From Nitrospirota bacterium (lineage in GTDB: Bacteria > Nitrospirota > UBA9217), in the NCBI GenBank assembly GCA_963818475.1, contig CAWFSF010000006.1, forward strand, positions 1,408,001 through 1,472,000: a stretch of 64,000 nucleotides of DNA. The letters run 5' to 3'. Positions 7,739 to 41,472 of this stretch are shown here, one piece after another (position 1 is the first letter of the stretch; every line of letters starts with the position of its first letter). The notes under the pieces were generated by a model that saw only the letters and a program-made list of their open reading frames with translations, was not told the origin of the DNA and ran no database searches. The position numbers and the translations under genes are program-made.

Positions 7739-8308
7739 TCAGGCAAAGACGAGTGTGCCGAGACCAAGCAGCATGAACAGTATGCCGGCTGCAGGCGTCA
7801 CCAGCCGGGCGGGGATGAACTTATGAAGCCGGCCGGCAACAAGAATCCCGAGCAGGGACGCCAGGCTCAAGGCGACAAGGCTTCCGAGGAACACCGCAAT
7901 GAAATTCTGATACTTTACCGACAGCAGCAGGGTCGCGATCTGGGTCTTATCACCCATCTCGGAGACGGCGATCAGACTGAAGGCGGTAATGAAGCCAGCC
8001 TTTGCCGATGGTTTGACCGCTGCGGTTTCGTTGTCCTCACCCTTGCGCAGCAGCATGTATATCCCAAACAGGATGAACACCCATGCGGATATTCGAGTGA
8101 TCAAATCCGGTGACAGCAGTTCACCCAATCCTTTTCCCAGGACCGCAGCGCTGCCGGAAAGCAGTGCAAATGCAAGGACCGCTCCGGTCAATACCGGACG
8201 CCCCCCGTAGCGCAGGGCAAGCGTGAAAACCATCAGTTGTGTCTTGTCTCCGAGTTCGGCAACAAAAATAAGCCCGAAAGAAACGAGGAATATCATTATG
8301 AGGGACAT
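7739..8308 (-). CDS. TMEM165/GDT1 (UPF0016) Mn2+/Ca2+ transporter
   Basis: Two ExGDKTQ motifs (ELGDKTQ, EMGDKTQ); hydrophobic. Confidence 0.92.
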   Translation of the reverse strand: MSLIMIFLVSFGLIFVAELGDKTQLMVFTLALRYGGRPVLTGAVLAFALLSGSAAVLGKGLGELLSPDLITRISAWVFILFGIYMLLRKGEDNETAAVKPSAKAGFITAFSLIAVSEMGDKTQIATLLLSVKYQNFIAVFLGSLVALSLASLLGILVAGRLHKFIPARLVTPAAGILFMLLGLGTLVFA

Positions 8309-8322
8309 AAATAAAGGCTCTC

Positions 8323-9037
8323 CTAGGGCTTTCCCAACAGGTCATGCTGCTTCCTGACAAGTGCCTTGATCCCTTTTTCACCAAGAGCAACCAGCCTGTT
8401 GAGTTCGGCCTTTGAGAACGGTTCACCTTCAGCCGTCCCCTGCACCTCAACGATCCTGCCTTTGCCGGTCATGACGATGTTCATATCAACCTCTGCAGCG
8501 GAGTCTTCCGTATAGCAGAGGTCGAGCATGGGTTTCCCGTCGACGATCCCGACGCTGATCGCCGCCAGATAGTCCGTCACGGGAATCGTCGTCGATCATC
8601 CCCTGCTTTCTGGCCCGTCTGAGGCCGTCGACGAGCGCAATATAGGCGCCCGTTATCGAGGCCGTACGAGTGCCGCCGTCGGCCTGGATCACATCACAGT
8701 CGATGAGCACGGTCCGTTCACCCAGGGCTTTCATATCCACGACCGATCGCAGGGACCGTCCGATGAGCCGCTGGATCTCATGGGTGCGGCCGCCGACCTT
8801 GCTCCGCTCGCGCGAGATCCGCTGCGCTGACGAACGGGGAAGCATGGCATATTCCGCCGTGACCCATCCGGTCCCCTTGCCTTTGAGGAACGGAGGGACC
8901 GAGTTCTCCACCGTCGCCGTGCACAGCACGCGCGTATCGCCAAACTCGATCAGGACCGAACCTTCGGCTGTTTTGAGATAATTTCTGGTGACCTTCAGCT
9001 TGCGGAGTTCATCCGCTTTTCTGCCATCTGCCCGCAT
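8323..9037 (-). CDS. rph: Ribonuclease PH (frameshift near 8590)
   Basis: [69 protein letters not shown]. Confidence 0.95.
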
Positions 9038-9169
9038 TGCATCCTCCTGTTCAGAAATCTCTTTCGCCCGACGCACACAGAACCCCTGCGTTCAAGCATA
9101 ACTTATTATCGGCAATCGCCTGGACAGGCGATGCCGTATGTCCTTGGCGCTCTTATGCGAAACCACCAA

Positions 9170-10531
9170 TTAGATCTTGTACTTTTTCAGTTTGTACCGC
9201 AGCACCCGCTCACTGATGCCGAGCCGTTCTGCAGCGCGTGTCTGGATGCCGTCAGACTCTTTCAGCGCATCGAGGATGAGGCCCCGCTCCACGGTATCGA
9301 GCGTTTCGTTGAGCTGCCCCTTTAAGGGAACAACAGGCGCCTTGCCGTCGCTCTCTGCGCCCTGGAGATGCAGCGGAAGATCCGTGACCGTGATCGTCCC
9401 CCGCTTCGCCAGCACCACTGCGCGCTCGATGATGTTTTCCAGTTCCCTGACATTCCCGGGGTATGCATACCGCATCAACCGGTCCCGTGCCTCTGCTGCC
9501 ACTCCCGAGATTTCCTTCTTATTCTCGGCACTGTATTTTTTAATAAAATGCTCCATCAATGCCGGAATGTCTTCCTTCCGGTCGCGCAGCGGCGGGATGA
9601 CCACGGACACGACATTCAGGCGGTAGTAGAGGTCCTCCCGGAATCTTCCTTCACGAATGTCCTTTTCGATGTCGCGGTTCGTTGCCGTGATCACGCGAAC
9701 GTCGACCTTGATCGTCTGGTTTCCGCCGACGCGTTCGAACTCCCGTTCCTGCAGCACCCGGAGCAGCTTCACCTGCATTCCCGGCGTCAGTTCACCAATC
9801 TCGTCCAAAAAGATGGTCCCCGTGTCAGCAGCTTCGAACCGTCCGATGCGTTTCGAGGTGGCGCCGGTAAAAGCGCCTTTTTCGTGGCCGAAAAGCTCGC
9901 TTTCGAGCAGTGTCTCGGGAAGCGCAGCGCAATTGACCTTGATAAGCGGGCATTTCGCCCGCGGGCTGTGGTAATGGATCGCCTTGGCAACCAGTTCCTT
10001 GCCCGTGCCGCTTTCCCCCCGCAGCAGCACCGTGGCATTGCTGGCCGCCACACGGCCGGCGAGGTTCAGCGCCTCTTCCATGGCATGGCTGGTGCTCACG
10101 ATCTCGTCGAACTTATATCGTTCGCGGAGCTGTTCCTTCAGTTCTGTGTTCTCACGGATAAGGTTCTGTCGCTCCGAGATACGCTCAATTAAGAGGACCA
10201 GCTGTTCCAGGTCAATGGGCTTGGGAAGATAATCATATGCCCCTGCCTTGATCGCCTTCACCGCCGTTTCGATAGTTCCAAAGGAGGTCATAATGATGAC
10301 CGCCATGTCAGGATTCAGTTTGTGTGCCTCGCCTGAGGTCCGGAGCGCATCCACGCCGGGGATGTTACAGTCGGTAAGAAACAGATCGAACCGCTCCCGT
10401 TTAAGCGCCTCCATGGCGTCGGCAACGCTGCCGACACCCAGAACATCATATTTCCGCTGCGCGAGGAACGTTTCGATCCGCTTCCGTTCCTGTTCCTCGT
10501 CATCCATGACCAGAATTCGCGCTTCCTGCAT
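9170..10531 (-). CDS. sigma54-dependent response regulator (NtrC family), no adjacent kinase
   Basis: Receiver, GESGTGKE, GAFTGA, Fis HTH. Confidence 0.93.
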   Translation of the reverse strand: MQEARILVMDDEEQERKRIETFLAQRKYDVLGVGSVADAMEALKRERFDLFLTDCNIPGVDALRTSGEAHKLNPDMAVIIMTSFGTIETAVKAIKAGAYDYLPKPIDLEQLVLLIERISERQNLIRENTELKEQLRERYKFDEIVSTSHAMEEALNLAGRVAASNATVLLRGESGTGKELVAKAIHYHSPRAKCPLIKVNCAALPETLLESELFGHEKGAFTGATSKRIGRFEAADTGTIFLDEIGELTPGMQVKLLRVLQEREFERVGGNQTIKVDVRVITATNRDIEKDIREGRFREDLYYRLNVVSVVIPPLRDRKEDIPALMEHFIKKYSAENKKEISGVAAEARDRLMRYAYPGNVRELENIIERAVVLAKRGTITVTDLPLHLQGAESDGKAPVVPLKGQLNETLDTVERGLILDALKESDGIQTRAAERLGISERVLRYKLKKYKI

Positions 10532-14592: not shown

Positions 14593-15928
14593 ATGAAAAG
14601 CGGTTCTATTGTACTTTCAATCTGCATTATTGTGTTACTGTCGTCAGCCCCGATACAGGCAGAGACCCTGGCCTATCAGGACGGCCAGACAACCATCCCT
14701 TCCCAGCTTAAACCGCCAACTGAGGACCTTGCACAGCTTGATGAACTGATCGATGAGGCTTCTGAAGAGAAGCCCTATCATATCCCCATGATCCTGAACG
14801 ACAGCGTCGAGAACCATCTTGAGTATTTCAAGACGCGCGGACGGGATGTATTCCAGCGGTGGCTCGACCGCTCGGCGCGGTACATTCCGGTTATGAAGGA
14901 TATTTTCAAAGAAAAGAACCTGCCGGAAGACCTGGTCTATGTGGCCATGATCGAGAGCGGTTTCAACCCCTATGCCGTTTCCTGGGCCAAAGCCGTGGGC
15001 CCCTGGCAGTTCATGCCCGCAACCGGCAAGCTTTACGGGCTCAAGATCGACTGGTGGATCGACGAGCGCAAGGATCCGATCAAGTCGACCATGGCAGCAG
15101 CAGAACACCTGAAGGATCTGCACAACCTCTTCGGCTCCTGGCCGCTTGCCCTGGCATCGTATAATGCCGGCGCTGGAAAGGTCCAGCGTGCAGTGCTCCG
15201 GACGCGTTCCGATGATTTCTGGGACCTGAAGGCATCGCGCTACATCCGCAAGGAAACCAAGAACTACGTCCCCAAGTACATGGCCGCAACTATCATTGCC
15301 AAGAATCCCGAGGCATACGGATTCAGCGTCACCAGTATCGAGCCGTACAATTTCGACGAGGTTGTGGTCGACCAGTCCACGGACCTCCGCTTGATCGCGC
15401 GCTGCGCCAACTGCACCTATGAAGAGATCAAGGAATTGAACCCTGAGATCAAACGGTGGGTGACGCCTCCCCAATATGCGAATTACGTCCTGCGGATCCC
15501 GAACGGCAGAAAAGACACCTTCCTTGCGAATTACGCCGCAGTCCCGGCGGAACAGAGGATCACATGGGAACGGCACCTGGTGCAAAAGGGAGAGACCCTT
15601 GCCGTCCTTGCCAGAAAGTACAATACGACCCCTGAGGCGCTCCGCGATATCAACGGGATCAAAAAGGACCGCGTCATTCCCGGCAAGCACATTCTTATCC
15701 CTCTCGACCTGAACAGCAAGACCCAGGACTTAAGCTACCTGACCATCAACCAGGGCAGCAAGACTGCAGGATATCTTGTACCGGGTTCGGAGAGGTGAGA
15801 CGCTCGGCGTCATCGCACGAAATCATAATGTAACGGTTGCCGATATCAGGGAGTGGAACAAAGGACTGGGGAAATCGGTGCGGGCCGGCCAGAAGATCAA
15901 GCTCATCGTGGACACTGACCAGATCTGA
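14593..15928 (+). CDS. mltD: MltD-like lytic transglycosylase with two LysM domains (frameshift near 15760)
   Basis: IESGFNP, AVGPWQFM, YNAG, ETKNYVPK; LysM VQKGETL and YRVRRGETL, stop at 15928 in shifted frame. Confidence 0.85.
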
Positions 15929-15947
15929 CACAGACGAAGGCGACGAA

Positions 15948-15984
15948 TTAAAAAAAGGCCGGGAGCGAATCCCGGCCTTTTTTA
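15948..15984. terminator. Bidirectional terminator between convergent mltD and cluster A
   Basis: A-tract GGCCGGGA-GCGAA-TCCCGGCC T-tract. Confidence 0.8.
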
Positions 15985-16021
15985 TTTGTCTCTATGCAGT
16001 ACAGCTTATGCAGAGCTGGAC

Positions 16022-16699
16022 TCAGACGGCCAGCAAGGTACCCTGGTTCATGCGGAGATGGCGTTTCGTCTGCCTCGCCAGGTCGGTATTATGGGTGACC
16101 ATGATGAACGTGACCCCTTTGGACCTCGTTCATGGTCTTAAAGAAACGCATCATGTCCCCTTCCGTCTCTTCATCGAGGTCTCCCGTAGGCTCGTCGGCC
16201 AGCACCAGGGCCGGATCGTTCATAAAGGCCCGGGCGATCGCCACCCGCCGCTGCTGTCCGCCGGACAATTGCGCAGGATAGACGTTGATCTTGTCCGTGA
16301 GGCCGACCATGCTGCAGCAGTTCTTCCGCCTTTCGCCGCCTCCTGCCCGGCTGCGCGCGGCCTGAAGACCGTGGGCAGCAGAAGGTTCTCCTTGACCGTG
16401 AGTATCGGAAGAAGACTGGCGAACTGGAACATAAATCCGATCTTTTCACAACGGTATTCCGAGACCCGGTCGCTTGCCAGCGCATAGATATCCTCGCCGT
16501 CGAACAGGACCTTCCCCGAGGAGGGACGGGTAATGCCGCCGATCATGGACAGCAGGGTGGTTTTGCCTGAACCGGAGTGTCCGACGATCGAGATGAAATC
16601 TCCCTTGTCGATCCGCAGAGAAACGGAACGAACGGCGTCGATGGGAGCGTTATCGACGAGGTAGGTCTTGGTGATATTCTCAACAATGATCTGCGGCAC
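16022..16699 (-). CDS. LolD/MacB-type ABC ATPase, cluster A (frameshifts)
   Basis: [43 protein letters not shown]. Confidence 0.9.
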
Positions 16700-16702
16700 G
16701 GA

Positions 16703-17901
16703 TTACTCCTGTTTGATCACGAGCAGGGGTTCCAGCTTTTTTAAGCCGTTGGACCGGCGACAGCGCCCCCAGCACGCAGATGCCGGTCCCGAACAACAGG
16801 CCGGCAAGAGCGATGACCGTACGGGTGAACGTACTGAGGTCTACGGGGAGATTTTTCAGGATCGAAAAACTTTGCGCCATGATGAACGTCAGTGTTGTTC
16901 CCGCGATAATGCCGACAATGCTTCCTATCGCACCGAGCACAAGGACCTCAAAGAGGAACAATGTTCACCACATGTCGCTCTTTCGCACCGAGAGCACGCA
17001 TGATACCGACCTCCCGCGTCCGCTCGTTCGCAATGGCGGTGAAGATCGCCCACACCAGGAAGAGCGAAAGAACGGTTGAAAGGACCATGGTGAGATAGAA
17101 GATCTTGCTGATGTCCCCCAGGGTGGTGATCAGGCTCTTTCCGATGTCCTTGCGCATCACGACGTCCAGTTCAATGATATTGTTCTCGATCTCGGACATG
17201 ACCGTATAGGGGTCCGCGCCCTTTTTGAGCTTGGCGAAGATCACGGATATCTGGTCCGGCTTGATATCTGCATCGCTGTTCTTGATGATCTCGTCGATGT
17301 TCTCATCGCTGATGAACACCGCGGTATCGAGGCCTGAGCCGGTCTTGTCCAGTACGCCGACCATGCTGAACACGCTGCCGAACAGCTTCGCCTCCATCTC
17401 CACCATTCCAAGATTGATATTATAGGCCGACTCGCTGCCGACGATGGCTTCCCCTTTTCGCAGCTTCCGTCCCAGTTTGTCTTTCAGCCAGGGCGTAACA
17501 ATGAAGTCGGTCTCCTGGTTAAAGGCAACGACCATGGATGACGGAACGGAACAGCAAAGTCCGGTAAGCGTTACCAGATAGGTCTGAGCGGAAACCTTAT
17601 CGATGCCCTCGATCTTTTTGATCCGGTCAAGAAAGGACTTGTTCATGTAGAAGGACGTGGCACGGTTCTCTACCAGAATGTCCTCTGCCCCTCCCCGGGC
17701 TCCCGTAGGCACGATCAGAAGGTCGGCGCCAAGGCGGTCCGACGTCAGCTTGATGCTTGAATTAACGCGCGTGACAAAGGAGAGGGCAAAAACGAGAGCA
17801 GCCACCATCAGGGACAGCGCCGCCACGAGGATGCCGGTCCGGAGGGGCCGGCGGCGCAGGTTACGGAAAGCCATGGATGAGAGCGTAAATTGATCAGGCA
17901 T
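16703..17901 (-). CDS. MacB/FtsX-type ABC permease with periplasmic Cys-Cys motif, cluster A (frameshifts)
   Basis: RNLRRRPLRT, RLGADLLIVP, LTGLCCSV, ERTREVGIMRALGA; ends PLLVIKQE*. Confidence 0.88.
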
Positions 17902-17920
17902 AGTGTTTTAGCAGGCAAAT

Positions 17921-17956
17921 AAAAACCTTCTCTGCGGAATATCCCGCAGAGAAGGT
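17921..17956 (-). terminator. Hairpin/terminator between propeller A and its permease
   Basis: ACCTTCTCTGCGG...CCGCAGAGAAGGT, T-tract on minus strand. Confidence 0.7.
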
Positions 17957-17985
17957 CAGGACGTTTCAGCTATTGGATCTTTATA

Positions 17986-19133
17986 CTACTTCTTCCAGTT
18001 CGTGTCAAGGCCGCAAAGAACAGCATTCTTGTCGCCGAGACCCATGCCCTTGTGGCATGCCAGGCAGACCGAGGTGGACTTGTCGGACAATTTCTTCGCA
18101 TCAGCATCATAGAACATGAGCGTGCCGTCGGTGATGTCAACGCCCTTGCCCTCTTTTACGATCGCCTTGCCGTCGGCATCGCAGCCGGCAGTCACGGTAC
18201 GAACCGTCAGCATGGCATACTTGTCGTCAGGCGTCGTCTGTGCATCGTGGATCTGGTTTCCGGCCGGCATCATCTTCTCGTCGATCAGGGTCAGGGTCTT
18301 TGCATCGAGCACCCAGAGGCGGTCGCCTGCCGACTGATAGATGCGGGTTCCGTCGTTCGAGAAGTACTGGCGGAAGGTGATGGTCTTGTCCGGCTCACCC
18401 TTCAGCGTGTTCTTGGCGATCTTCTTGAATTTGCCCTTTTCAAGCGATGCCATATCAACAAGGATGAAATCGATGGAGCCGTTGCCTTTGCCGTCCTTGC
18501 TGCCTGATTGAGCACCAGAAGGAAGGTCTTCATGTCAGGCGAGTTGATGCCGTGCGTGAACTTGTACGTCCCCTTTTCATAGCCCAGGTCGCTCACCCAT
18601 ACCCGTTCCTTGTGCTTCATCGTGGCCTTGTCAAAGACATCGACATAGCCTTCCTGGCCCATGAACACCGGCATGTAGAAACCCTTGCTCTGGCCGGATG
18701 CGCAATAGAGCGGCGGCTTCGAGCCACCTGCGCTGGCATCGGGGTCCATGGCAACATCCTTGATCACGTTGCCGGTCTTGAGGTCGGACTTGCCTACATG
18801 CTGCTTGCCCTTCGGGTCAAGCACATAGGTTGACCAGAACATGGTGTTCGGATCGTTCGCATCGATACGTGCGTCATGGGTCGGATGGGTCTTCTTGTCA
18901 CCGATAACAATGCGGTCCAGGTTGGTCACTTTGATCGGCTCATTTTCATTGCTCGGGTCGATGGTCACATCGGCCTTGGCAAAGTGGCCGCCCATACCGG
19001 CAACATAGGTTGTGCCGCTGTAGGTAGTGCCTGCTGCGATGGCGACCGGCGTTGTGGAATCAACGGTCGTAAAAGCAAGGTAGCCCATAACAACAACTGC
19101 GCATATGGTCAGTACAACGAAAACCTTTTTCAT
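17986..19133 (-). CDS. Secreted His/Cys-rich beta-propeller protein with C-terminal CxxCH (propeller A; frameshift near 18500)
   Basis: Joined ORFs 18402..19217 and 17986..18453; ATG 19133 after GGGAGG; signal peptide; blade-like repeats THDARID, YCASGQS, THGINSPD, FRQYFSNDG, IHDAQTTPDD, LCGLDTNW; CLACH. Confidence 0.75.
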
Positions 19134-19275
19134 ACTGTTCCTCCCTATTATAATATTATTTAACATCATACTTGATACATGTTTGTTCGAGTGTTCGACA
19201 TAATACTTCTGTAGCACGTTGCCCCTAGCACCTCCTTGGTATTATATAAAGAGCATATTGCTTATGATTATACAC

Positions 19276-19326
19276 AGTATCACAGAGCTATAACAAGGTC
19301 GTCAACTTCAAATTCTAATTTTACAT
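19276..19326 (-). promoter_or_regulatory. sigma70-type promoter with operator abutting -35, cluster A
   Basis: Minus strand ATGTAAAATT-AG-AATTT-GAAG-TTGACG-N18-GATACT with extended TG. Confidence 0.6.
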
Positions 19327-19801
19327 CATTGATAGCGGCTCCGCGTGGCCCTTGTTGCATAATCCGTTAACTTCATTACTATTGTTCTTTCGCCTGAGCG
19401 TTTAAAGGTCAGCACGATACGAAGCTCCGTCCCCGCCTGCATGGTCCGCGGCAATCTTAAAGATCATGATATGCTTGCCGGCCGGCCTCAGCACAAGAGT
19501 GCTGTTCGCGGGGACGTCCATGCCGGTGACGGTCGTCATTTTCCCGTCTTTCTTCGTCATGCAGTTCCGTTATCGCTCCGGGCATATCCGTACGGGCAGA
19601 CAGAAGCCGATCGTCGCCGTTTCCCGTGTTGACGATCTTCATGAACACCGATGCAACGCCCAGTATGACAGGCGACAGTTTTGCCTCGGGCTCTTCGACC
19701 ACGATCTGAGGCTCTCCGGGAGAGCACGCGGCTCCTCCCAGAAGGAAAGCGACCAGAACTGCCAAGATGGTGCAGATGAGAGGATTCGCCTTCAGGGGCA
19801 T
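19326..19801 (-). CDS. PCuAC copper chaperone lipoprotein (frameshifts)
   Basis: Lipobox AAC; ASVFMKIVNTG..DDRLLSA; ELH...GKM...LRPAGKHIM (H-xn-M...H-x-M); LTFKRSG. Confidence 0.85.
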
Positions 19802-19825
19802 AGCCAGATCCTTCCCTTGTACGCG

Positions 19826-20524
19826 TTATTTTGCAGCGGTTCCCTTTGCAGGAGGCGCAGCAGCGCCCTGAACCTCAGGCGCAAAGGTGGTACCGCCGAG
19901 CTTTTCAGCGATCACTTTATTCTTTTTCTGCGCCTCAGCTGTGTTCCCAGCACGTTCGTACAATTTAGCCAGTTCCACCGTGGCAATCCCCGGCCCGAGA
20001 ACCGCCTCCGCCTTTTCGAATGACGCTATGGCTTCACTCTGTTTGCCGAGCGCACTATACACGTACCCCATACGCTGATAGGCCAGTCCGACCAGATCCT
20101 TATCAACGAATTTACTTTTTGGCAAGGGTTTCGTATTCCCGAAGGGCCTCATTCGGGCTGGTTGAGCTTTACGAGACAATTGCCGATGTAGAATTGCGCG
20201 ATTGCGCCGCTCATCGTGCGGGGATACTTTTTTTGCACATCGCGGTACCGTTCGAGCGCCTTTGCATAATCAGGCGCAGCACCGCGCCTGCTCCTGATAC
20301 AGTCCCTGTGCGGCGGCAAGCAGTGCGGAGGCTTTTTTGTCGTTGCTGGACTGAAAAAGCGTATAGCCTGCGGCAATGACGACCACTGCCGCCAGGACAA
20401 CGACGGCTATCGTAAGGTTCTTCTGGTACAGCGAAACGAGATCAAGGGCCTTGTTCGCGATGGTCATGAGCTGCGGCTCCGCATGCTTTGACGCGGCAGA
20501 GCCTTTCTTCTTTATCATATGCAT
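19826..20524 (-). CDS. Membrane-anchored TPR protein, YfgM-like (two frameshifts)
   Basis: N-terminal TM segment, YPRTMSGAIAQFYIGN, TPR helices across ORFs 20270..20524, 20149..20400, 19826..20179. Confidence 0.7.
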
Positions 20525-35457: not shown

Positions 35458-36471
35458 ATGAAGAAAAGTATCATAGTTTTGCTCGTTGTTCTCAGCATCT
35501 TCGGTCTTGTCGTGGCAGTACAGGCCGCAAACGAACTGAAGGGAACCATGTACGTTTCTGGCCATGGCGGACATCTCGCCATCATAGACCTGGCCACTCT
35601 GAAGGAACCCACTGACGTTGAAAAGGACCGTATCGTCATTACCGAAGCAGGCTCTGAGATGGAAGGCAAAATTGCCGGCATGGACTTTGCTGCGGTGAAG
35701 AAGTCCGGCGGTTCGCACGGCAGTTCGCTTATCGACAAGACGCTTTATGTCGGCCTGCTGAACGGCACCGTGGTAACGTACGATCTGAAAACCGGAAAAA
35801 AATCAGCGCCCATCGCTGTCGGCAAGAAATTCTGCGACGCAGTGGTCGGTCCTGACGGCAACATCTACCTTGAAGACATGGCCGACGGGCATGTCTATAT
35901 TTTCGATCCGAAAGGCTTGAAGACCGTGGACAAGCTGCCGGTCGGTGCTGCAGTATGCGGTATTGCCTGGACCAAGTCCCGCGACAAGGCTTATGTTTCC
36001 GACATGCCCCAGGGAAAGATCTTCGTCATCGACTGGAAAACGAAAAAGACGGTAAAAGAGATCACCGATCCCGAGTTGACCTTTATCCACCAGCTCCGCA
36101 TGACCAATGACGGCAAGCAGGTATGGGTTGCAGCCGCAAATGAATACGATCCAGGCCTCAAGCCCGGCACCCATAAGTCGCAGATCGTCGTGATCGACAC
36201 AAAGACCGACAAGGTCGTAGAGCACATCGTTCTTCCTGACACGCTCAGGGCCCATGACGTGAAGTTCTCTCCCGATGGAAAAACAGCACTCGTCAGCGGT
36301 CGCGATTACGCGACCAAAGACGGCGCCATCGGAATCATGGACGTCAAGACCCGTAAGATCGTGAAAACCGTATCCATCTGCGCAGGCTGCCATAAGGCTG
36401 CCGGTGTTACGGTAACGATCGACGATGGCGCACCGCTCCTGTGCGGCATGGCTATTGACTGGAAGAAATAA
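35458..36471 (+). CDS. Secreted YncE/YVTN-like beta-propeller with His/Cys ring and C-terminal CxxCH (propeller B)
   Basis: ATG after GGAGG; signal peptide ending VQA; blades SHG, FCDAVVGPDG, VCGIAWT, IHQLRMTNDG, AHDVKFSPDG, LCGMAIDW; CAGCH. Confidence 0.82.
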   Translation: MKKSIIVLLVVLSIFGLVVAVQAANELKGTMYVSGHGGHLAIIDLATLKEPTDVEKDRIVITEAGSEMEGKIAGMDFAAVKKSGGSHGSSLIDKTLYVGLLNGTVVTYDLKTGKKSAPIAVGKKFCDAVVGPDGNIYLEDMADGHVYIFDPKGLKTVDKLPVGAAVCGIAWTKSRDKAYVSDMPQGKIFVIDWKTKKTVKEITDPELTFIHQLRMTNDGKQVWVAAANEYDPGLKPGTHKSQIVVIDTKTDKVVEHIVLPDTLRAHDVKFSPDGKTALVSGRDYATKDGAIGIMDVKTRKIVKTVSICAGCHKAAGVTVTIDDGAPLLCGMAIDWKK

Positions 36472-36502: not shown

Positions 36503-36546
36503 CGGAGGGCGGGGAATAACCCGCTCTCCGTTTTTTTATTTTTTTC
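36503..36546 (+). terminator. Terminator between propeller B and its permease
   Basis: CGGAGGGCGGG...CCCGCTCTCCG followed by long T-tract. Confidence 0.75.
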
Positions 36547-36588: not shown

Positions 36589-37784
36589 ATGAATATCCCC
36601 TATGTAGCGCTTAAGAACCTGAAACGGAAGATCACGCGGACCTGGCTGCTCTTTGCTATCGTAGCTGTTGTTTCGGGTACGCTCTTCACGGCCACCCTTT
36701 TTTTAAAGAGTATTAACAACGCGCTGAAGCTCGGCACCTATCGCCTCGGCGCCGATATCCTGGTTGTGCCGGCAAGCGCCGAGACCAGGGCCAAGGCAGC
36801 GCTCCTGTCCGGAGAGCCGACGCAATTTCTTATGAACAGATCGGTGCTCGATCAGGTGCGAAAGATCGAAGGGGTCAAGGCCGCCACGCCGCAGCTCTTT
36901 CTTAAACCAAGCAGCTTCTCCTGCTGCTTTAACGTGGAAATTTTTCTCGTTGCCTTCGACCCCGAGACCGACTTTACCGTAAAACCCTGGCTCGAAAAAC
37001 ACCTGAACAGGCCCCTGGGCCCCAACGAAATCATTACCGGCCGTGAGATCCCGGTCATCGCCGGCGACAATATCCCCTTCTTCGGCACAACGTTTAGCGT
37101 GGTGGGAACCATGGAACCCACGGGGATGGACTTCTTCGACCGCACGGGTTTCATGAGCCTTGATGGCGCCTACAAAATGGCAGAAGATTCAAAATTAAAA
37201 GCACTCCAACCGCTCGATATCAGCCGAGACCAGGTTTCCACCGTCCTGGTACAGGTCACCGAAGACTTCAGCCCCGACCGCGTCGCCATCGGATCGAACA
37301 TGACATACCCGACGTCAAGGCACTGACCTCCGACACCGTCATCAGCACCGTAAGAAAACAGCTTTCGGGCCTGATCCGCGCCATTGTCATTATCAGTGTC
37401 ATACTCTGGTTCATCGTCCTTTTGATCATGGCCTTTGCGTTCTATATGATCGTCAACGAACGCCGACGCGAGATCGGCCTGCTGCGCGCCATGGGAGCGA
37501 ATCGTGGCCATATTGCTGCGATCGTTCTGACCGAAGCGTCGCTGCTATCAGCCGCAGGCGGGGCCGTGGGCGTTCTGCTTGGGTTCGGCCTGCTGATGAG
37601 CATCAAAAGTCTGCTCCTCCATTACCTGAAGCTTCCCTATCTGTTCCCTTCATCGCCTGAGTTGATCGTTCTGACCGCGGGAGCGATATCCCTTTCCATC
37701 CTGACCGGCCTGCTCTCGGCGTTTTTGCCGGCCGTCGCCATCATCAGGACCGAGCCCTACGAGGCCATAAGGAGCGCAGAATGA
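36589..37784 (+). CDS. MacB/FtsX-type ABC permease with periplasmic Cys-Cys motif, cluster B (frameshift near 37290)
   Basis: KNLKRKITRT, RLGADILVVP, SFSCCFNV, ERRREIGLLRAMGA, EPYEAIR. Confidence 0.88.
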
Positions 37785-38377
37785 GATCTATTCTTACCAT
37801 TATTCTGCTGCTGACCCCAGTCATGTTCTCCTGTTCCCGGGATGCCGCCAAACCGGCAGCGCCGGTTGCTGAGCAGAAGAACGACATCCAGCTCTTGCGG
37901 GAACAGATTCAGAACAACCCGCAGGACGCCGAGGCGTTGTATCAACTCTCCGAGCTCTATGATCGTGCAGGCTTGTTCCAGGAAGAGATCGACACCCTGC
38001 GCAAGGTAGTTGCCATAAAGCCGGACATGGGATATGCCTATTTCAAGCTGGGGACTGCCTGCAACAGGATCGAACAGTACCAGGAGGCGGTGGCAAACTT
38101 CACCAAAGCGACGAAGTTGATCCCCAACCAGCCCATGGTATACAACAACCTTGCCTTCTCCTATGGAAAACTCGGTAAAACGGACCAGGAGATCGCAACC
38201 CTGAAAAAAGCGCTTGCCATACGGCCGGGCTATAACATCGCCCGCTTCAACCTCGGTATGGCTTACCTTAGATCAGGACAGCAAAAGGAAGCGCTGCAGC
38301 AGTATACGGTCCTCAAGGAACGGGACGAGGGGTATGCAGCTGCGTTAAAAAAAGAGATCGATTCCAAAAGGAGATAA
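37781..38377 (+). CDS. TPR lipoprotein
   Basis: Lipobox FSC; about 4 TPR repeats. Confidence 0.85.
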   Translation: MRSILTIILLLTPVMFSCSRDAAKPAAPVAEQKNDIQLLREQIQNNPQDAEALYQLSELYDRAGLFQEEIDTLRKVVAIKPDMGYAYFKLGTACNRIEQYQEAVANFTKATKLIPNQPMVYNNLAFSYGKLGKTDQEIATLKKALAIRPGYNIARFNLGMAYLRSGQQKEALQQYTVLKERDEGYAAALKKEIDSKRR

Positions 38378-38785
38378 TTGATGCAACGGTTGATGAAAAT
38401 GTTTTTCCCGGCGTTTTCAATAGTACTTTTCTGTTCCCTTTCCGCATCTGCAGAGATGATACAATGCGCTCAGTGCGGCATGGGGGTGGACCTCGACTCA
38501 AAGTTCACGTCCAGGATCGTTCAGCCAAAGCAGACCCGGCATTTCTGCGATATCGGCGACCTCTTCGCCTATCTGAAAACAAACCCTTCTGCCGCTGCCG
38601 AGGCACAGGTCAGGGATTATCGGTCCGGAGAGTGGGTCAACGCCCAGCAAGCCTACTATGTAAATTCTGCAAAGAAGTTTCAGACACCCATGGGCTGGGG
38701 CATCGCAGCATTTAAGAACAAACCGGAGACCGCTGAATTCGGAAACGCGCTGAATTTCAATGATATGACGAAAAGCCTGAAATAA
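38378..38785 (+). CDS. nosL: NosL-family copper-binding protein
   Basis: CAQCGM, FCDIGDL, VRDY..GEW.NA..AYYV, TPMGWG.AAF. Confidence 0.88.
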   Translation: MMQRLMKMFFPAFSIVLFCSLSASAEMIQCAQCGMGVDLDSKFTSRIVQPKQTRHFCDIGDLFAYLKTNPSAAAEAQVRDYRSGEWVNAQQAYYVNSAKKFQTPMGWGIAAFKNKPETAEFGNALNFNDMTKSLK

Positions 38786-38818
38786 GACCCTCCCGGGCGT
38801 GTGCAAGAAAGGAATGTC

Positions 38819-39482
38819 ATGATCGAGCTGAAAGACCTGTCAAAAACTTATAGGGTATCAGACCGGACCGTCAATGCGGTCCTGCCGGTCACATTGTCCA
38901 TCAACCAGGGAGACTTTGTGTCCATTGTCGGACACTCCGGGAGCGGCAAAAGCACGCTGCTCAGCCTGATCGGCGGAATAGCGAAACCCGACAAAGGGAC
39001 CGTGGTCATAGACGGCACCAATATCCGGGACTATGACGACCGGAAGCTTTCAAAATTAAGAAATGACAAGTTCGGGTTCGTCTATCAGTTTGCCAGCCTC
39101 ATCCCCACGCTCACGGCCAGGGAGAACGTCCTGCTGCCGACCGTTTTCGGTCAGACAAAAAAACGATACCGATGCAGTTCAATTGCTTCACCAGGTCGGT
39201 CTGGGCGACAAGATCGACCGCTACCCCTCCGAGCTTAGCGGCGGCGAACAACAGCGCGTGGCCATAGCACGCGCCTTTATTAACTCGCCCGAGGTCATCC
39301 TTGCCGACGAGCCGACCGGCGACCTCGATGAAGAGACCGAGGCGGAGATTATGGCGTTCTTCGAAAAGATCAATAAAGAAAAAAAAGTCACCATGATCAT
39401 GGTGACCCACAGTTCAGAGCTTGCGCTCCGGGCCGCCAGCCGGTTCAGGATGAAGCAGGGAACGCTGGAAAAGTTGAATTAG
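38819..39482 (+). CDS. LolD/MacB-type ABC ATPase, cluster B (frameshift near 39165)
   Basis: [43 protein letters not shown]. Confidence 0.9.
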
Positions 39483-39875: not shown

Positions 39876-40577
39876 TTACCTGACTTTGTCTCCAAAGAGA
39901 TGATCATACTCAGCCGGATGATGGTGCTTCAGCTGGTCAATGGACATCTTCCCGGTGAGCCACATCCAGTTCATCGGGAACACCTCAGACCTCAGGTGCT
40001 CGTTATAGAAGTGGAAGATCAGGATGAACACGATCGCAAGCAGGGCTTCATCGCTGTGCATGGCAATGATCACGTCCCAGATCCACTGGATCGACCACAT
40101 CGGGAAGAGCGACGATACCGTCACCGGGAACGCCAGGAAGAACCCCGACGCGCCGATGATGAACATGCCCCAGTACACCGCCCAGTAGTCGAACTTCTGC
40201 ATGTAGTTGAACTTGCCGAAGTAGGGCTTCTCTTTCCTCAGCCCGAAGAAGTACATGAAGTTGTGGAACGCGTCAACAACGTCCTTGGGCATCGGAATGA
40301 GCGTGGGCCTCATGCCTCCCTTGCGGAACTGGTTGATGAGGTAGAACTGGTGGTAGATGAAGTCGAGCAGCATGGTGATGCCCGCCACGCGGTGTATGAG
40401 CCCCGCCATCTTTGCGCCGCCCCAGAAGCTGATCCAGGCGCTGGCAGGGTCCTGATAGGCATACTTGAGCCCCCAGCCGGTGAAGGACAGGAGCAGGAAC
40501 GTGGTGAACATGATGACATGCTGGATGCGTGCGGAGAGGTCGAACCTCTCGATCTCAGTCGGAACAGTCTTATTCAT
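39876..40577 (-). CDS. Cytochrome b subunit (FdnI/CbcL-type membrane domain)
   Basis: RIQH, IHRVAG, KFNYMQKFDYWAVYWG, HSDEALLA, HFYN. Confidence 0.88.
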   Translation of the reverse strand: MNKTVPTEIERFDLSARIQHVIMFTTFLLLSFTGWGLKYAYQDPASAWISFWGGAKMAGLIHRVAGITMLLDFIYHQFYLINQFRKGGMRPTLIPMPKDVVDAFHNFMYFFGLRKEKPYFGKFNYMQKFDYWAVYWGMFIIGASGFFLAFPVTVSSLFPMWSIQWIWDVIIAMHSDEALLAIVFILIFHFYNEHLRSEVFPMNWMWLTGKMSIDQLKHHHPAEYDHLFGDKVR

Positions 40578-41472
40578 GATCGTCCCTCTTTCTGAACAAA
40601 CGTTCGCGGATGTCGGCGAAGATATCCAGAAGCACATGGATGCAGATGAACATGAAGACGCTCACGGTGAGAACGATAAGGCCGATCTCGGTCCAGTGGG
40701 CAATGGGATGCATCGGTTTGTGCGTGATGGCTGCCACGAATTTTTCGGTTGCACCCGGGTGGCACTTGGCGCAGGTCTTGATCTTATTCGCTCCGTTCAC
40801 CGGCGAGGACGGGTCCTTAGCGCTCTTCACATCATGCGCGCCGTGGCAATCCGAGCACGCAGGAGCGTTGCGGTGGCCTACTTTGAGCTTTCTGCCGTGG
40901 AAGCTTTCCTTGTAGCGCTCCATGACATGCGGGCTGAAACCGTACTTCTCGGTCATGCTCTTTTCTTCATGGCACTTGCCGCAGGTTTCGACAATATTAA
41001 AATGATTGACCGCCGATTCCCTGCTGGTCTTTGACTGGATATAATGCGGCGACCCGTGGCAGTCCGTACACACCGGGCCGTCTGAGGATTTTTTTACGAT
41101 GACATTCTGGCCATGGACGCTTGTTTTGTACGCCTGGTAGGTATCGGCATGACAGTTCACGCAGGCGGCCTGCGCGACCGCATTGGACCTGCTCTTCGGG
41201 GAAATGGCTGCGGCAAGTTCCACCACGGTTTTGTCCGGCTTGGCTCCCGACAATCCCTGATGCTGTGCACCTTGCAGCGTCAGGTGGCACATGGTACAGT
41301 CATTCATCCCGCCGTGGACCGATTTGGAGAATTTTTCCTGATCTACTTTTACAGCGCCTTCCATGGACCCGTGACAGCCCAGACACGTTGCAGCATCAGC
41401 TGCCGCGTGTGCCGACGGGGCCAGAAGAAGGGTAAACAAGAACAACGATACTGCGTTCAACCAGTTCCTCAT
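40570..41472 (-). CDS. Membrane-anchored heptaheme cytochrome c
   Basis: Signal peptide; seven CxxCH (CLGCH, CTMCH, CVNCH, CTDCH, CGKCH, CSDCH, CAKCH); SVHG/SFHG repeats; C-terminal TM helix with His. Confidence 0.9.
   Translation of the reverse strand: MRNWLNAVSLFLFTLLLAPSAHAAADAATCLGCHGSMEGAVKVDQEKFSKSVHGGMNDCTMCHLTLQGAQHQGLSGAKPDKTVVELAAAISPKSRSNAVAQAACVNCHADTYQAYKTSVHGQNVIVKKSSDGPVCTDCHGSPHYIQSKTSRESAVNHFNIVETCGKCHEEKSMTEKYGFSPHVMERYKESFHGRKLKVGHRNAPACSDCHGAHDVKSAKDPSSPVNGANKIKTCAKCHPGATEKFVAAITHKPMHPIAHWTEIGLIVLTVSVFMFICIHVLLDIFADIRERLFRKRDDHE

Follow-up and report, generated by a model that had tools for sequence, protein, structure and literature searches.

Propeller B, a candidate copper-binding hub propeller encoded beside a MacB-type ABC system in Nitrospirota

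What could a small exported beta-propeller do with six cysteine and histidine residues set around its central channel? The question is raised by propeller B, the product of a gene within a 64,000-nucleotide stretch of DNA from a Nitrospirota bacterium (GTDB lineage Bacteria; Nitrospirota; UBA9217; GenBank assembly GCA_963818475.1, contig CAWFSF010000006.1, forward-strand positions 1,408,001 to 1,472,000). This whole stretch is called the window below, and positions are counted from its first letter. A sequence-only reading of the same DNA had proposed that propeller B and a paralogue in the window, propeller A, are six-bladed propellers that hold a multinuclear copper-type site of His, Cys and Met ligands. 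The reading at which we arrive, with a probability of about 0.5, is that propeller B is a periplasmic protein that binds copper at its hub, may act as a redox enzyme and would be loaded by its own ATP-binding cassette (ABC) machine.

The ring of propeller B and its conservation

Propeller B (100% identity to P0001) begins with a hydrophobic Sec-type signal peptide at approximately residues 1-24 and has no twin-arginine motif. The AlphaFold2 model, built on a 43-sequence alignment, has a mean predicted local distance difference test score (pLDDT) of 89.3 and a predicted template modelling score of 0.86. By DSSP it contains 24 strands that form six four-stranded blades, with the C-terminal strand 328-335 joining residues 29-60 and supplying the innermost strand of blade 1. 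The predicted fold is a six-bladed beta-propeller, as had been claimed, and a model of an A-type relative, P0272, agrees in the number of blades (pLDDT 86). An exhaustive VIA-align comparison of the propeller B model placed YWTD, NHL, Kelch and lactonase propellers, which are six-bladed folds, at the top (Z 20-25). Foldseek against the PDB returned generic propellers only, and a PDB sequence search gave a YVTN S-layer protein as its best match, with no close solved relative.

In the model the innermost strands start at residues 328, 86, 125, 166, approximately 210 and 264, which places C329, H87, C126, C167, H211 and H266 second on these strands, one in each of blades 1 to 6. The short strings on which the copper proposal had been built, SHG, FCD, VCG, IHQ, AHD and LCG for the ring and GHGGH, EDM and SDM for the loops, are all present in the translation, and the equivalence of blade position that was claimed for the ring residues is borne out in every blade of the model. 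The ring would line one mouth of the central channel. Judging from the up-down topology of the blades, the starts of the inner strands, the GHGGH, EDM and SDM hairpins, the 61-85 loop and the 309-315 helix should all lie on one face of the disc, where H36, H39, M141, M183, the Met/Glu-rich 61-85 loop and the helix with the CxxCH motif would form a second shell around the ring. The model is least certain in the 25-residue loop 61-85 (35638-35712; TEAGSEMEGKIAGMDF..KKGGG; pLDDT 49-69), although this loop hardly varies among close homologues; rich in Met and Glu, it may close over the hub as a lid.

The most conserved motif of the superfamily is absent from the ligand list of the sequence-only reading, although it is invariant. 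This is the CxxCH motif (C308-A-G-C311-H312), which occurs in the B type, in the A type, in a 751-residue tandem paralogue and in all distant representatives, one of which has the variant CxxxCH. A CxxCH motif in an exported protein is the sequence criterion for a c-type cytochrome, and propeller B has both parts of it. The motif could be a haem c site, with extra thiolate and imidazole ligands or a redox dithiol as the alternatives. Several of the distant members end in a C-terminal Gly-Cys. One distant relative, P0127 (479 amino acids), has a cytochrome c domain inserted in the loop between blades 1 and 2 (Pfam Cytochrome_CBB3, 31 bits), and in another, P0126 (2470 amino acids), the propeller lies within an archaeal surface protein of the PGF-CTERM kind, which also has NosD-like beta-helix repeats.

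Conservation was counted over 73 rows, comprising propeller B and 72 propellers from 80 genome loci. H36, H39, C126, H266, C308, C311, H312 and C329 are conserved in 73/73 rows and M68, H87, M141, C167, M183 and H211 in 72/73, the lone outlier row being A-type in pattern, with H in place of C167 and F in place of H211. In distant representatives, with 26-46% identity, C126, C167, H211 and H39 are kept in nearly all. Mature propeller B contains 9 His and 5 Cys in 313 residues, a combined frequency of 0.045, and the naive probability of finding His or Cys at all six ring positions is this frequency to the sixth power, or 8e-9. Among 123 non-family YVTN-type proteins from a search of representative sequences, only 15 of 274 repeats have His or Cys at the x of P-x-G; by this comparison the Cys/His ring is specific to the family and not a property of generic YVTN repeats.

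The family is small and has sharp limits, with only 15 clusters at 50% identity reaching E <= 1e-30 among 1.8 billion representatives, and its matches in a protein atlas are automatic or unnamed clusters only. Propeller B passes the TIGR02276 YVTN repeat profile (40.4 bits, cut-off 27.85). An identity as YncE was rejected: the profile of this seven-bladed equivalog (NF052280) gives 40.5 bits against a cut-off of 400, and the "YncE" names in source records are automatic labels. No fused forms of 591-2000 amino acids were found at E <= 1e-10, which is weak evidence, and a literature search that covered few subscription journals found no description of the propeller family or of a propeller-chaperone-ABC system.

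A tblastn search of the window with propeller B found one paralogue only, propeller A. Its ring reads, from blade 1 to blade 6, C (LCG), H (THD), C (YCA), H (THG), F (TFR) and H (IHD), and it has the further motifs GMGGH, GCD, VFM and CLACH. All of the strings reported earlier for propeller A (THD, YCA, THG, TFR, IHD, LCG, GMGGH and VFM) are present, but the gene is split into two frames, and the sequence-only reading had crossed this split without mention. A-type relatives are intact proteins of approximately 381 amino acids. In the model of P0272, the residues C373, H86, C144, H194, F253 and H295 lie on the inner strands, and the A subfamily (26 sequences, 66-91% identity to P0272 as reference) is invariant at H50, H86, C144, H194, F253, H295, C317, C356, C359, H360 and C373. 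The two paralogues do have different ligand sets, then, each kept within its own subfamily; in particular, blade 4 has Cys in the B type and His in the A type, with neighbouring ring positions such as C126 unchanged. A-type proteins have no Pfam or NCBIfam match.

The same genome encodes a third paralogue (locus L130, contig C5, 562000-579000; open reading frame, ORF, 7822-10077, minus strand), a 751-residue tandem duplication of an A-like propeller. Both of its halves have CxxCH, GGH and the C/H/C/H/F/H pattern, and its flanking genes encode a porin O/P-like protein, a small lipoprotein and a 418-residue FtsX permease with a Cys-Cys pair.

These residues might instead be purely structural, either as disulfides or as a Cys2His2 structural zinc that staples the propeller shut, without a catalytic or trafficking role. 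Periplasmic proteins often carry disulfides, C126 and C167 sit on adjacent blades, and a clamp at C329, on the strand that the C-terminus lends to blade 1, could stabilise ring closure. However, the number of conserved cysteines is odd in each type (five), and C167 is exchanged for His in the A type while C126 stays, so a purely disulfide role is disfavoured. The conservation of six equivalent positions together with the Met/His loops also argues against a structural staple, and a dedicated set of ABC and chaperone genes goes beyond the needs of a clamp. We consider a purely structural role very improbable.

Gene clusters linked to the two propellers

The surroundings of B-type propellers were compared at 80 loci from GTDB species genomes (tblastn, E <= 1e-5), several of which lack neighbours and are cut by contig ends. 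A permease gene lies directly downstream of the propeller in 72/80 loci, and genes for a TPR protein and an ABC ATPase are each found in 68/80. Where a NosL-like gene is present, its ORF contains a CxxCGM motif (27/27). A pair of genes for a cytochrome b and a multihaem cytochrome c adjoins the cluster in 15/80 loci; in the window this pair is convergent to the cluster and is possibly an electron-transfer module. Some loci add DUF4418, YtkA-like or FtrD-like genes. The core cluster showed no gene for a solute-binding protein, a membrane-fusion protein or an outer-membrane channel. The genomes with B-type loci belong mostly to Nitrospirota/Thermodesulfovibrionales, together with a few metagenome-assembled genomes of Anaeromyxobacter, Myxococcales, Desulfobulbia and Chloroflexota. 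The coordinates of both clusters in the window are given in Table 1.

Table 1. Features of the two propeller clusters in the window
Feature	Position	Strand	Remarks
ABC ATPase, A cluster	~15900-16699	-	frameshifted
FtsX-type permease with Cys-Cys pair, A cluster	16680-17901	-	frameshifted
Propeller A (A-type paralogue)	17989-19133	-	found by tblastn with propeller B; frameshift at 18498
PCuAC-type copper chaperone	19457-19801	-	truncated by frameshift
Propeller B	35458-36471	+	intact ORF, 337 amino acids; predicted six-bladed beta-propeller
GHGGH loop (H36, H39)	35560-35574	+	strand 2-3 hairpin, blade 1
Six ring codons of propeller B	35716-36444	+	span of H87 through C329
H87 (GSHGS)	35716-18	+	blade 2
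C126 (KFCDA)	35833-35	+	blade 3
EDM loop, M141	35878-80	+	equivalent hairpin, blade 3
C167 (AVCGI)	35956-58	+	blade 4
SDM loop, M183	36004-06	+	equivalent hairpin, blade 4
H211 (FIHQL)	36088-90	+	blade 5
H266 (RAHDV)	36253-55	+	blade 6
CxxCH motif	36379-36393	+	on short helix 309-315, after blade 6 and before the strand that closes blade 1
C329 (LLCGM)	36442-44	+	blade 1
Terminator-like GC-rich hairpin followed by T-run	36503-36530	+	between propeller and ABC genes
MacB/FtsX-type ABC permease	36589-37784	+	Pfam MacB_PCD, FtsX; split by a missing base near 37290
TPR lipoprotein	37781-38377	+	Pfam TPR families
NosL-like copper chaperone, CAQCGM motif	38378-38785	+	Pfam NosL 40 bits, cut-off 24
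ABC ATPase	38801-39482	+	Pfam ABC_tran matches both pieces; split by an additional A within the A-run near 39163
Cytochrome b561-type gene	39876-40637	-	Pfam; convergent to cluster
Multihaem cytochrome c gene	40570-41472	-	Pfam; convergent to cluster

A feature shared by the permeases of the two clusters is a pair of adjacent cysteines. An alignment of 25 sequences shows no variation at these two residues, C112 and C113 of the periplasmic core domain, and the Cys-Cys pair occurs in 70/75 B-type permease ORFs and in 21/23 A-type loci. Within this genome, only three permeases combine the pair with a match to the whole permease profile, and these are the ones linked to propellers. The two cysteines are the sole cysteines of the permease pieces from the B and A clusters (for B, of the N-terminal part, 36589-37326). 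We know of no vicinal Cys-Cys pair in the periplasmic domain of MacB, LolC or FtsX.

A hairpin with a T-run, comparable to that in the window (Table 1), lies within 130 nucleotides of the propeller stop codon in 49/73 loci, a count made without a shuffled control. Its position suggests that the propeller is the abundant product and that the ABC genes are accessories, which would be reached by attenuated read-through. Promoter-like sites are not enriched over shuffled sequence (5, against a shuffle mean of 4.3), and an Rfam match to a fluoride riboswitch within the permease gene was put down to chance (19.8 bits, threshold 34).

The A-type cluster has a different chaperone. A PCuAC gene lies directly upstream of the A-type propeller in 23/24 places outside this genome, and the permease follows downstream in 22/24. 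The Pfam PCuAC profile gives 23 bits for the truncated copy in this genome and 79 bits for an intact ORF at locus L091. By these profile matches, two unrelated Cu(I) chaperone families, NosL-like and PCuAC, are linked to two paralogous propeller clusters; the link to copper, which the sequence-only reading had drawn from the propellers themselves, is backed here by genomic context, with each chaperone family in an operon-like association.

Both clusters carry frameshifts. Relative to L001, a relative with 93% identity, cluster B has two uncompensated single-base indels, one in the permease gene and one in the A-run of the ATPase gene; the flanking RecG and cytochrome genes have none. Comparison with three congeneric genomes shows at least 8 single-base insertions in cluster A (15900-20400), where the TPR, PCuAC, propeller, permease and ATPase genes are all hit. 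Either gene decay or local assembly error would account for the frameshifts.

Across the order (64 genomes), the B type is present in 33 genomes, the A type in 24, both in 4 and neither in 11, so that 53/64 have one type or the other. The other five genomes of the window's genus have either the A or the B type. This mostly mutually exclusive distribution suggests that the two are interchangeable isoforms, with related genomes not counting as independent samples, and it would fit a view of propeller A as a redundant copy in decay in this genome, with assembly error as the alternative.

Comparison with NosZ and other propeller systems

The sequence-only reading had likened the ring to the histidines with which NosZ, the nitrous oxide reductase, binds its CuZ centre. 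In a profile-profile comparison the family aligned with clade III NosZ (L-NosZ) over 170 columns (probability 96.9%, E 1.8e-10), which paired H211 with the first His of HH and H266 with that of NPHGHD. A canonical NosZ ORF gave the same match for H266, to the NPHG His (probability 82.6%, 66 columns). In PDB chain 9f8x_A, with which this canonical NosZ aligned in turn, the HH pair has indices 129 and 130, the NPHG His 320 and the GPLH His 375; adding 3 throughout gives H132, H133, H323 and H378, which are listed as CuZ ligands of the M. nauticus N2O reductase (PMC11573801). The alignments indicate that at least one ring position, H266 on the column of H323, and probably two are positionally homologous to CuZ ligands. 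The likeness to NosZ stands to this extent, with H266 and probably H211 on ligand columns, but only these two columns coincide and the tests of NosZ membership fail.

The broader architecture invites the same comparison. According to the same source, the CuZ site likewise sits in a periplasmic propeller with one hub ligand per blade and with the inner strand of the first blade coming from the C-terminus (PMC11573801). As in the NosZ system, a NosL-family chaperone and an ABC machine are encoded nearby in B clusters, and in the VIA-align comparison with the propeller B model the NosZ structure 2iwf scored Z 19.9. The differences are equally clear. Propeller B has six blades, whereas NosZ has seven, and its ring comprises 3 His and 3 Cys (3 His, 2 Cys and Phe in the A type) in place of 7 His. 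It has no cupredoxin CuA domain and ends at residue 337, only 25 residues past CxxCH, whereas L-NosZ ORFs (581-601 amino acids) carry the CuA motif. Unlike NosZ clusters, the core cluster contains no nosD, nosF or nosY gene and no ABC-2 permease. An identity as NosZ or L-NosZ was rejected on the lack of seven blades, seven His, CuA and nosDFY and on the NF052460 profile, which scores 33 bits against a cut-off of 700.

A role as an accessory of L-NosZ was also rejected. No NosZ-type match was found in any of the 44 genomes of the window's family (E <= 1e-30), so the chaperones and the ABC transporter are not serving a NosZ there, and the propeller is absent from 5/5 L-NosZ genomes. According to a review, nosDFYL is missing from clade III N2O reductase clusters, and the b-type cytochromes and MacB-type ABC transporter encoded there may be analogues of NosDFY (PMC13685413). 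Four L-nosZ loci that we retrieved had no MacB-type permease within reach. In these loci, L126-L129 from other Nitrospirota, the genes around L-nosZ encode cytochrome c, cytochrome b (split) and a thioredoxin-like protein. The loci also contain two further NHL/Vgb-like propeller genes of approximately 380-430 amino acids, fused into an 803-residue ORF in one genome; the two L-nosZ-cluster propellers that were retrieved do not share the ring.

A precedent for a non-enzymatic role is AztD, which is also a periplasmic propeller linked to an ABC transporter. AztD, a zinc metallochaperone, has a metal site near the propeller centre and works with a solute-binding protein and an importer. By analogy, propeller B might be a metallochaperone or sequestration protein of the periplasm that holds Cu(I), or Zn, Cd, Ag or Hg, at its hub and exchanges it with the MacB-type transporter for detoxification or trafficking. 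Such a carrier would suit the strict linkage with an ABC transporter and a TPR lipoprotein, the Met-rich loops, which resemble those of copper-trafficking proteins, the YtkA-like, DUF4418 and FtrD-like accessory genes of some loci and the neighbouring copper chaperones, which are themselves carriers; the near exclusion of the A and B types from one another is likewise what interchangeable carriers would show. There is also a match to the NCBIfam profile of AztD, NF038015, but it is weak (17.9 bits, cut-off 400), and an identity as AztD was rejected. The transporter here is of the MacB/FtsX type, unlike that of the AztD system, and the lack of binding-protein, membrane-fusion and outer-membrane channel genes in the core cluster counts against a trafficking role. 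Moreover, CxxCH, the cytochrome c insertion of P0127 and the adjacent cytochromes point to electron transfer, and the terminator-like hairpin suggests a propeller made as the abundant main product. We regard a carrier role as unlikely.

Two other groups of known proteins share parts of the system. SMP30/gluconolactonase, Drp35 and PAL have the same six-bladed fold (VIA-align Z 20-22 for lactonases, Drp35 and PAL), and the Pfam SGL profile gives 27.7 bits on propeller B, against a cut-off of 26.3. SMP30-like propellers bind metal at the tunnel mouth on the inner strands, through Asp, Glu and Asn for Ca or other divalent ions or through three His for Zn, whereas the propeller B family has Cys, His and Met as candidate ligands, the CxxCH motif and a dedicated set of ABC and chaperone genes. 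The permease resembles MacB, LolCDE and FtsEX in having MacB_PCD and FtsX domains and a separate ATPase. It differs from them in belonging to a distinct periplasmic subfamily with the Cys-Cys pair, in having no membrane-fusion or LolA-like partner in view and in having a beta-propeller as its neighbour.

A third comparison bears on whether the hub needs a metal ring at all. The Pfam Cytochrom_D1 profile (PF02239) gives 37.1 bits on propeller B (cut-off 25.5), aligning residues 177-317 with positions 228-356 of 368. The match is partial, and with six blades in the model against eight in the d1 domain, an assignment to the d1 domain of cd1 nitrite reductase was rejected. Cd1 nitrite reductase is nevertheless a precedent for haem at the centre of a propeller, and propeller B may be a haem c propeller in which CxxCH holds the sole cofactor, with the ring serving as a distal pocket or as a thiol active site that acts on a sulfur or nitrogen compound by acid-base or persulfide chemistry, and with the chaperones linked for some other reason. 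This would agree with the rank of CxxCH as the most conserved motif from B and A types to tandem and distant relatives, with a Sec signal in an organism that has multihaem cytochromes, and with the hosts, mainly Nitrospirota of the Thermodesulfovibrionales type, in which sulfur metabolism is found. It is harder to reconcile with the independent linkage of two unrelated copper chaperone families to paralogous clusters, with the permease Cys-Cys pair, which is difficult to account for unless metal is relayed, with a Cys-to-His exchange at one ring column of the kind typical of metal ligands, and with the coincidence of ring columns and CuZ ligand columns. We hold haem as sole cofactor to be doubtful.

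A possible copper relay and its meaning

Returning to the copper-binding hub, we envisage the following route. A Cu(I) chaperone, NosL-like in B clusters and PCuAC in A clusters, would pass copper to the Cys-Cys pair in the periplasmic domain of the permease, and ATP-driven movement of that domain would deliver it into the ring of the propeller, in parallel with the NosL-NosDFY-NosZ route. The ring would most likely bind copper, one ion or a few, through thiolate and imidazole ligands. CxxCH probably carries a c-type haem that would feed electrons to the hub in place of the CuA centre of NosZ; the propeller would then be a redox enzyme with haem c as the point of electron entry, and the A and B types would be alternative isoforms with different ligand sets. 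The ring, its conservation, the copper context and the NosZ analogy lend partial support to the copper-type site proposed earlier, a proposal that was incomplete in passing over CxxCH, a motif that alters the view of the site.

Several observations weigh against this reading. The NosL-like gene is found in only 27/80 B-type loci, and the copper chaperones of this genome have other possible clients, including one COX2 match, a second PCuAC locus and four further NosL-like matches. A Cys2His2-3 ligand set would fit zinc equally well. CxxCH, at the start of a helix, could be a redox-active dithiol instead of a haem site. With frameshifts in the ABC genes of both its clusters, this organism may lack a working system. 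Column conservation, finally, holds within each subfamily (72-73/73 in the B type) but not beyond it for every position: the blade-2 His is H, D or F in distant relatives, and the blade-6 His and blade-1 Cys are both missing from two distant members, as is the blade-3 Cys from one of these. The core conserved across all subfamilies comprises the Cys of blade 1, the Cys of blade 3, the His of blade 6, H39 and CxxCH; a site of one ion or of two would be equally compatible with it.

A more far-reaching version of the copper-binding hub is that the ring carries a new copper-thiolate/imidazole cluster at a six-bladed hub, possibly coupled to haem c and assembled by the MacB-type machine with copper that NosL or PCuAC supplies. 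The family would then offer another, independent case of an architecture known to date only from the CuZ centre of N2O reductase, and it would reduce a small molecule (an N-oxide, an oxygen species or a sulfur species) in anaerobic Nitrospirota. We offer this version tentatively, as unlikely in its full form.

According to a 2026 review, N2O reductase is the sole enzyme in which a propeller hub is known to carry a tetranuclear copper-sulfur centre (PMC13685413). In the propeller B family the hub-ligand architecture is kept and other parts are changed, with Cys for most of the His, CxxCH for the CuA domain and a MacB-type ABC machine with a Cys-Cys pair for NosDFY. The A-type proteins, as part of this family, are currently without any family assignment. 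If propeller B binds copper, it would represent a second and simpler system, with a propeller of only 337 amino acids, for loading a metal cluster in the periplasm, and it would suggest a role for the MacB-type transporter that accompanies clade III nosZ. A further implication would be a redox activity not yet known that is common in Nitrospirota, given the presence of one propeller type or the other in most genomes of the order.

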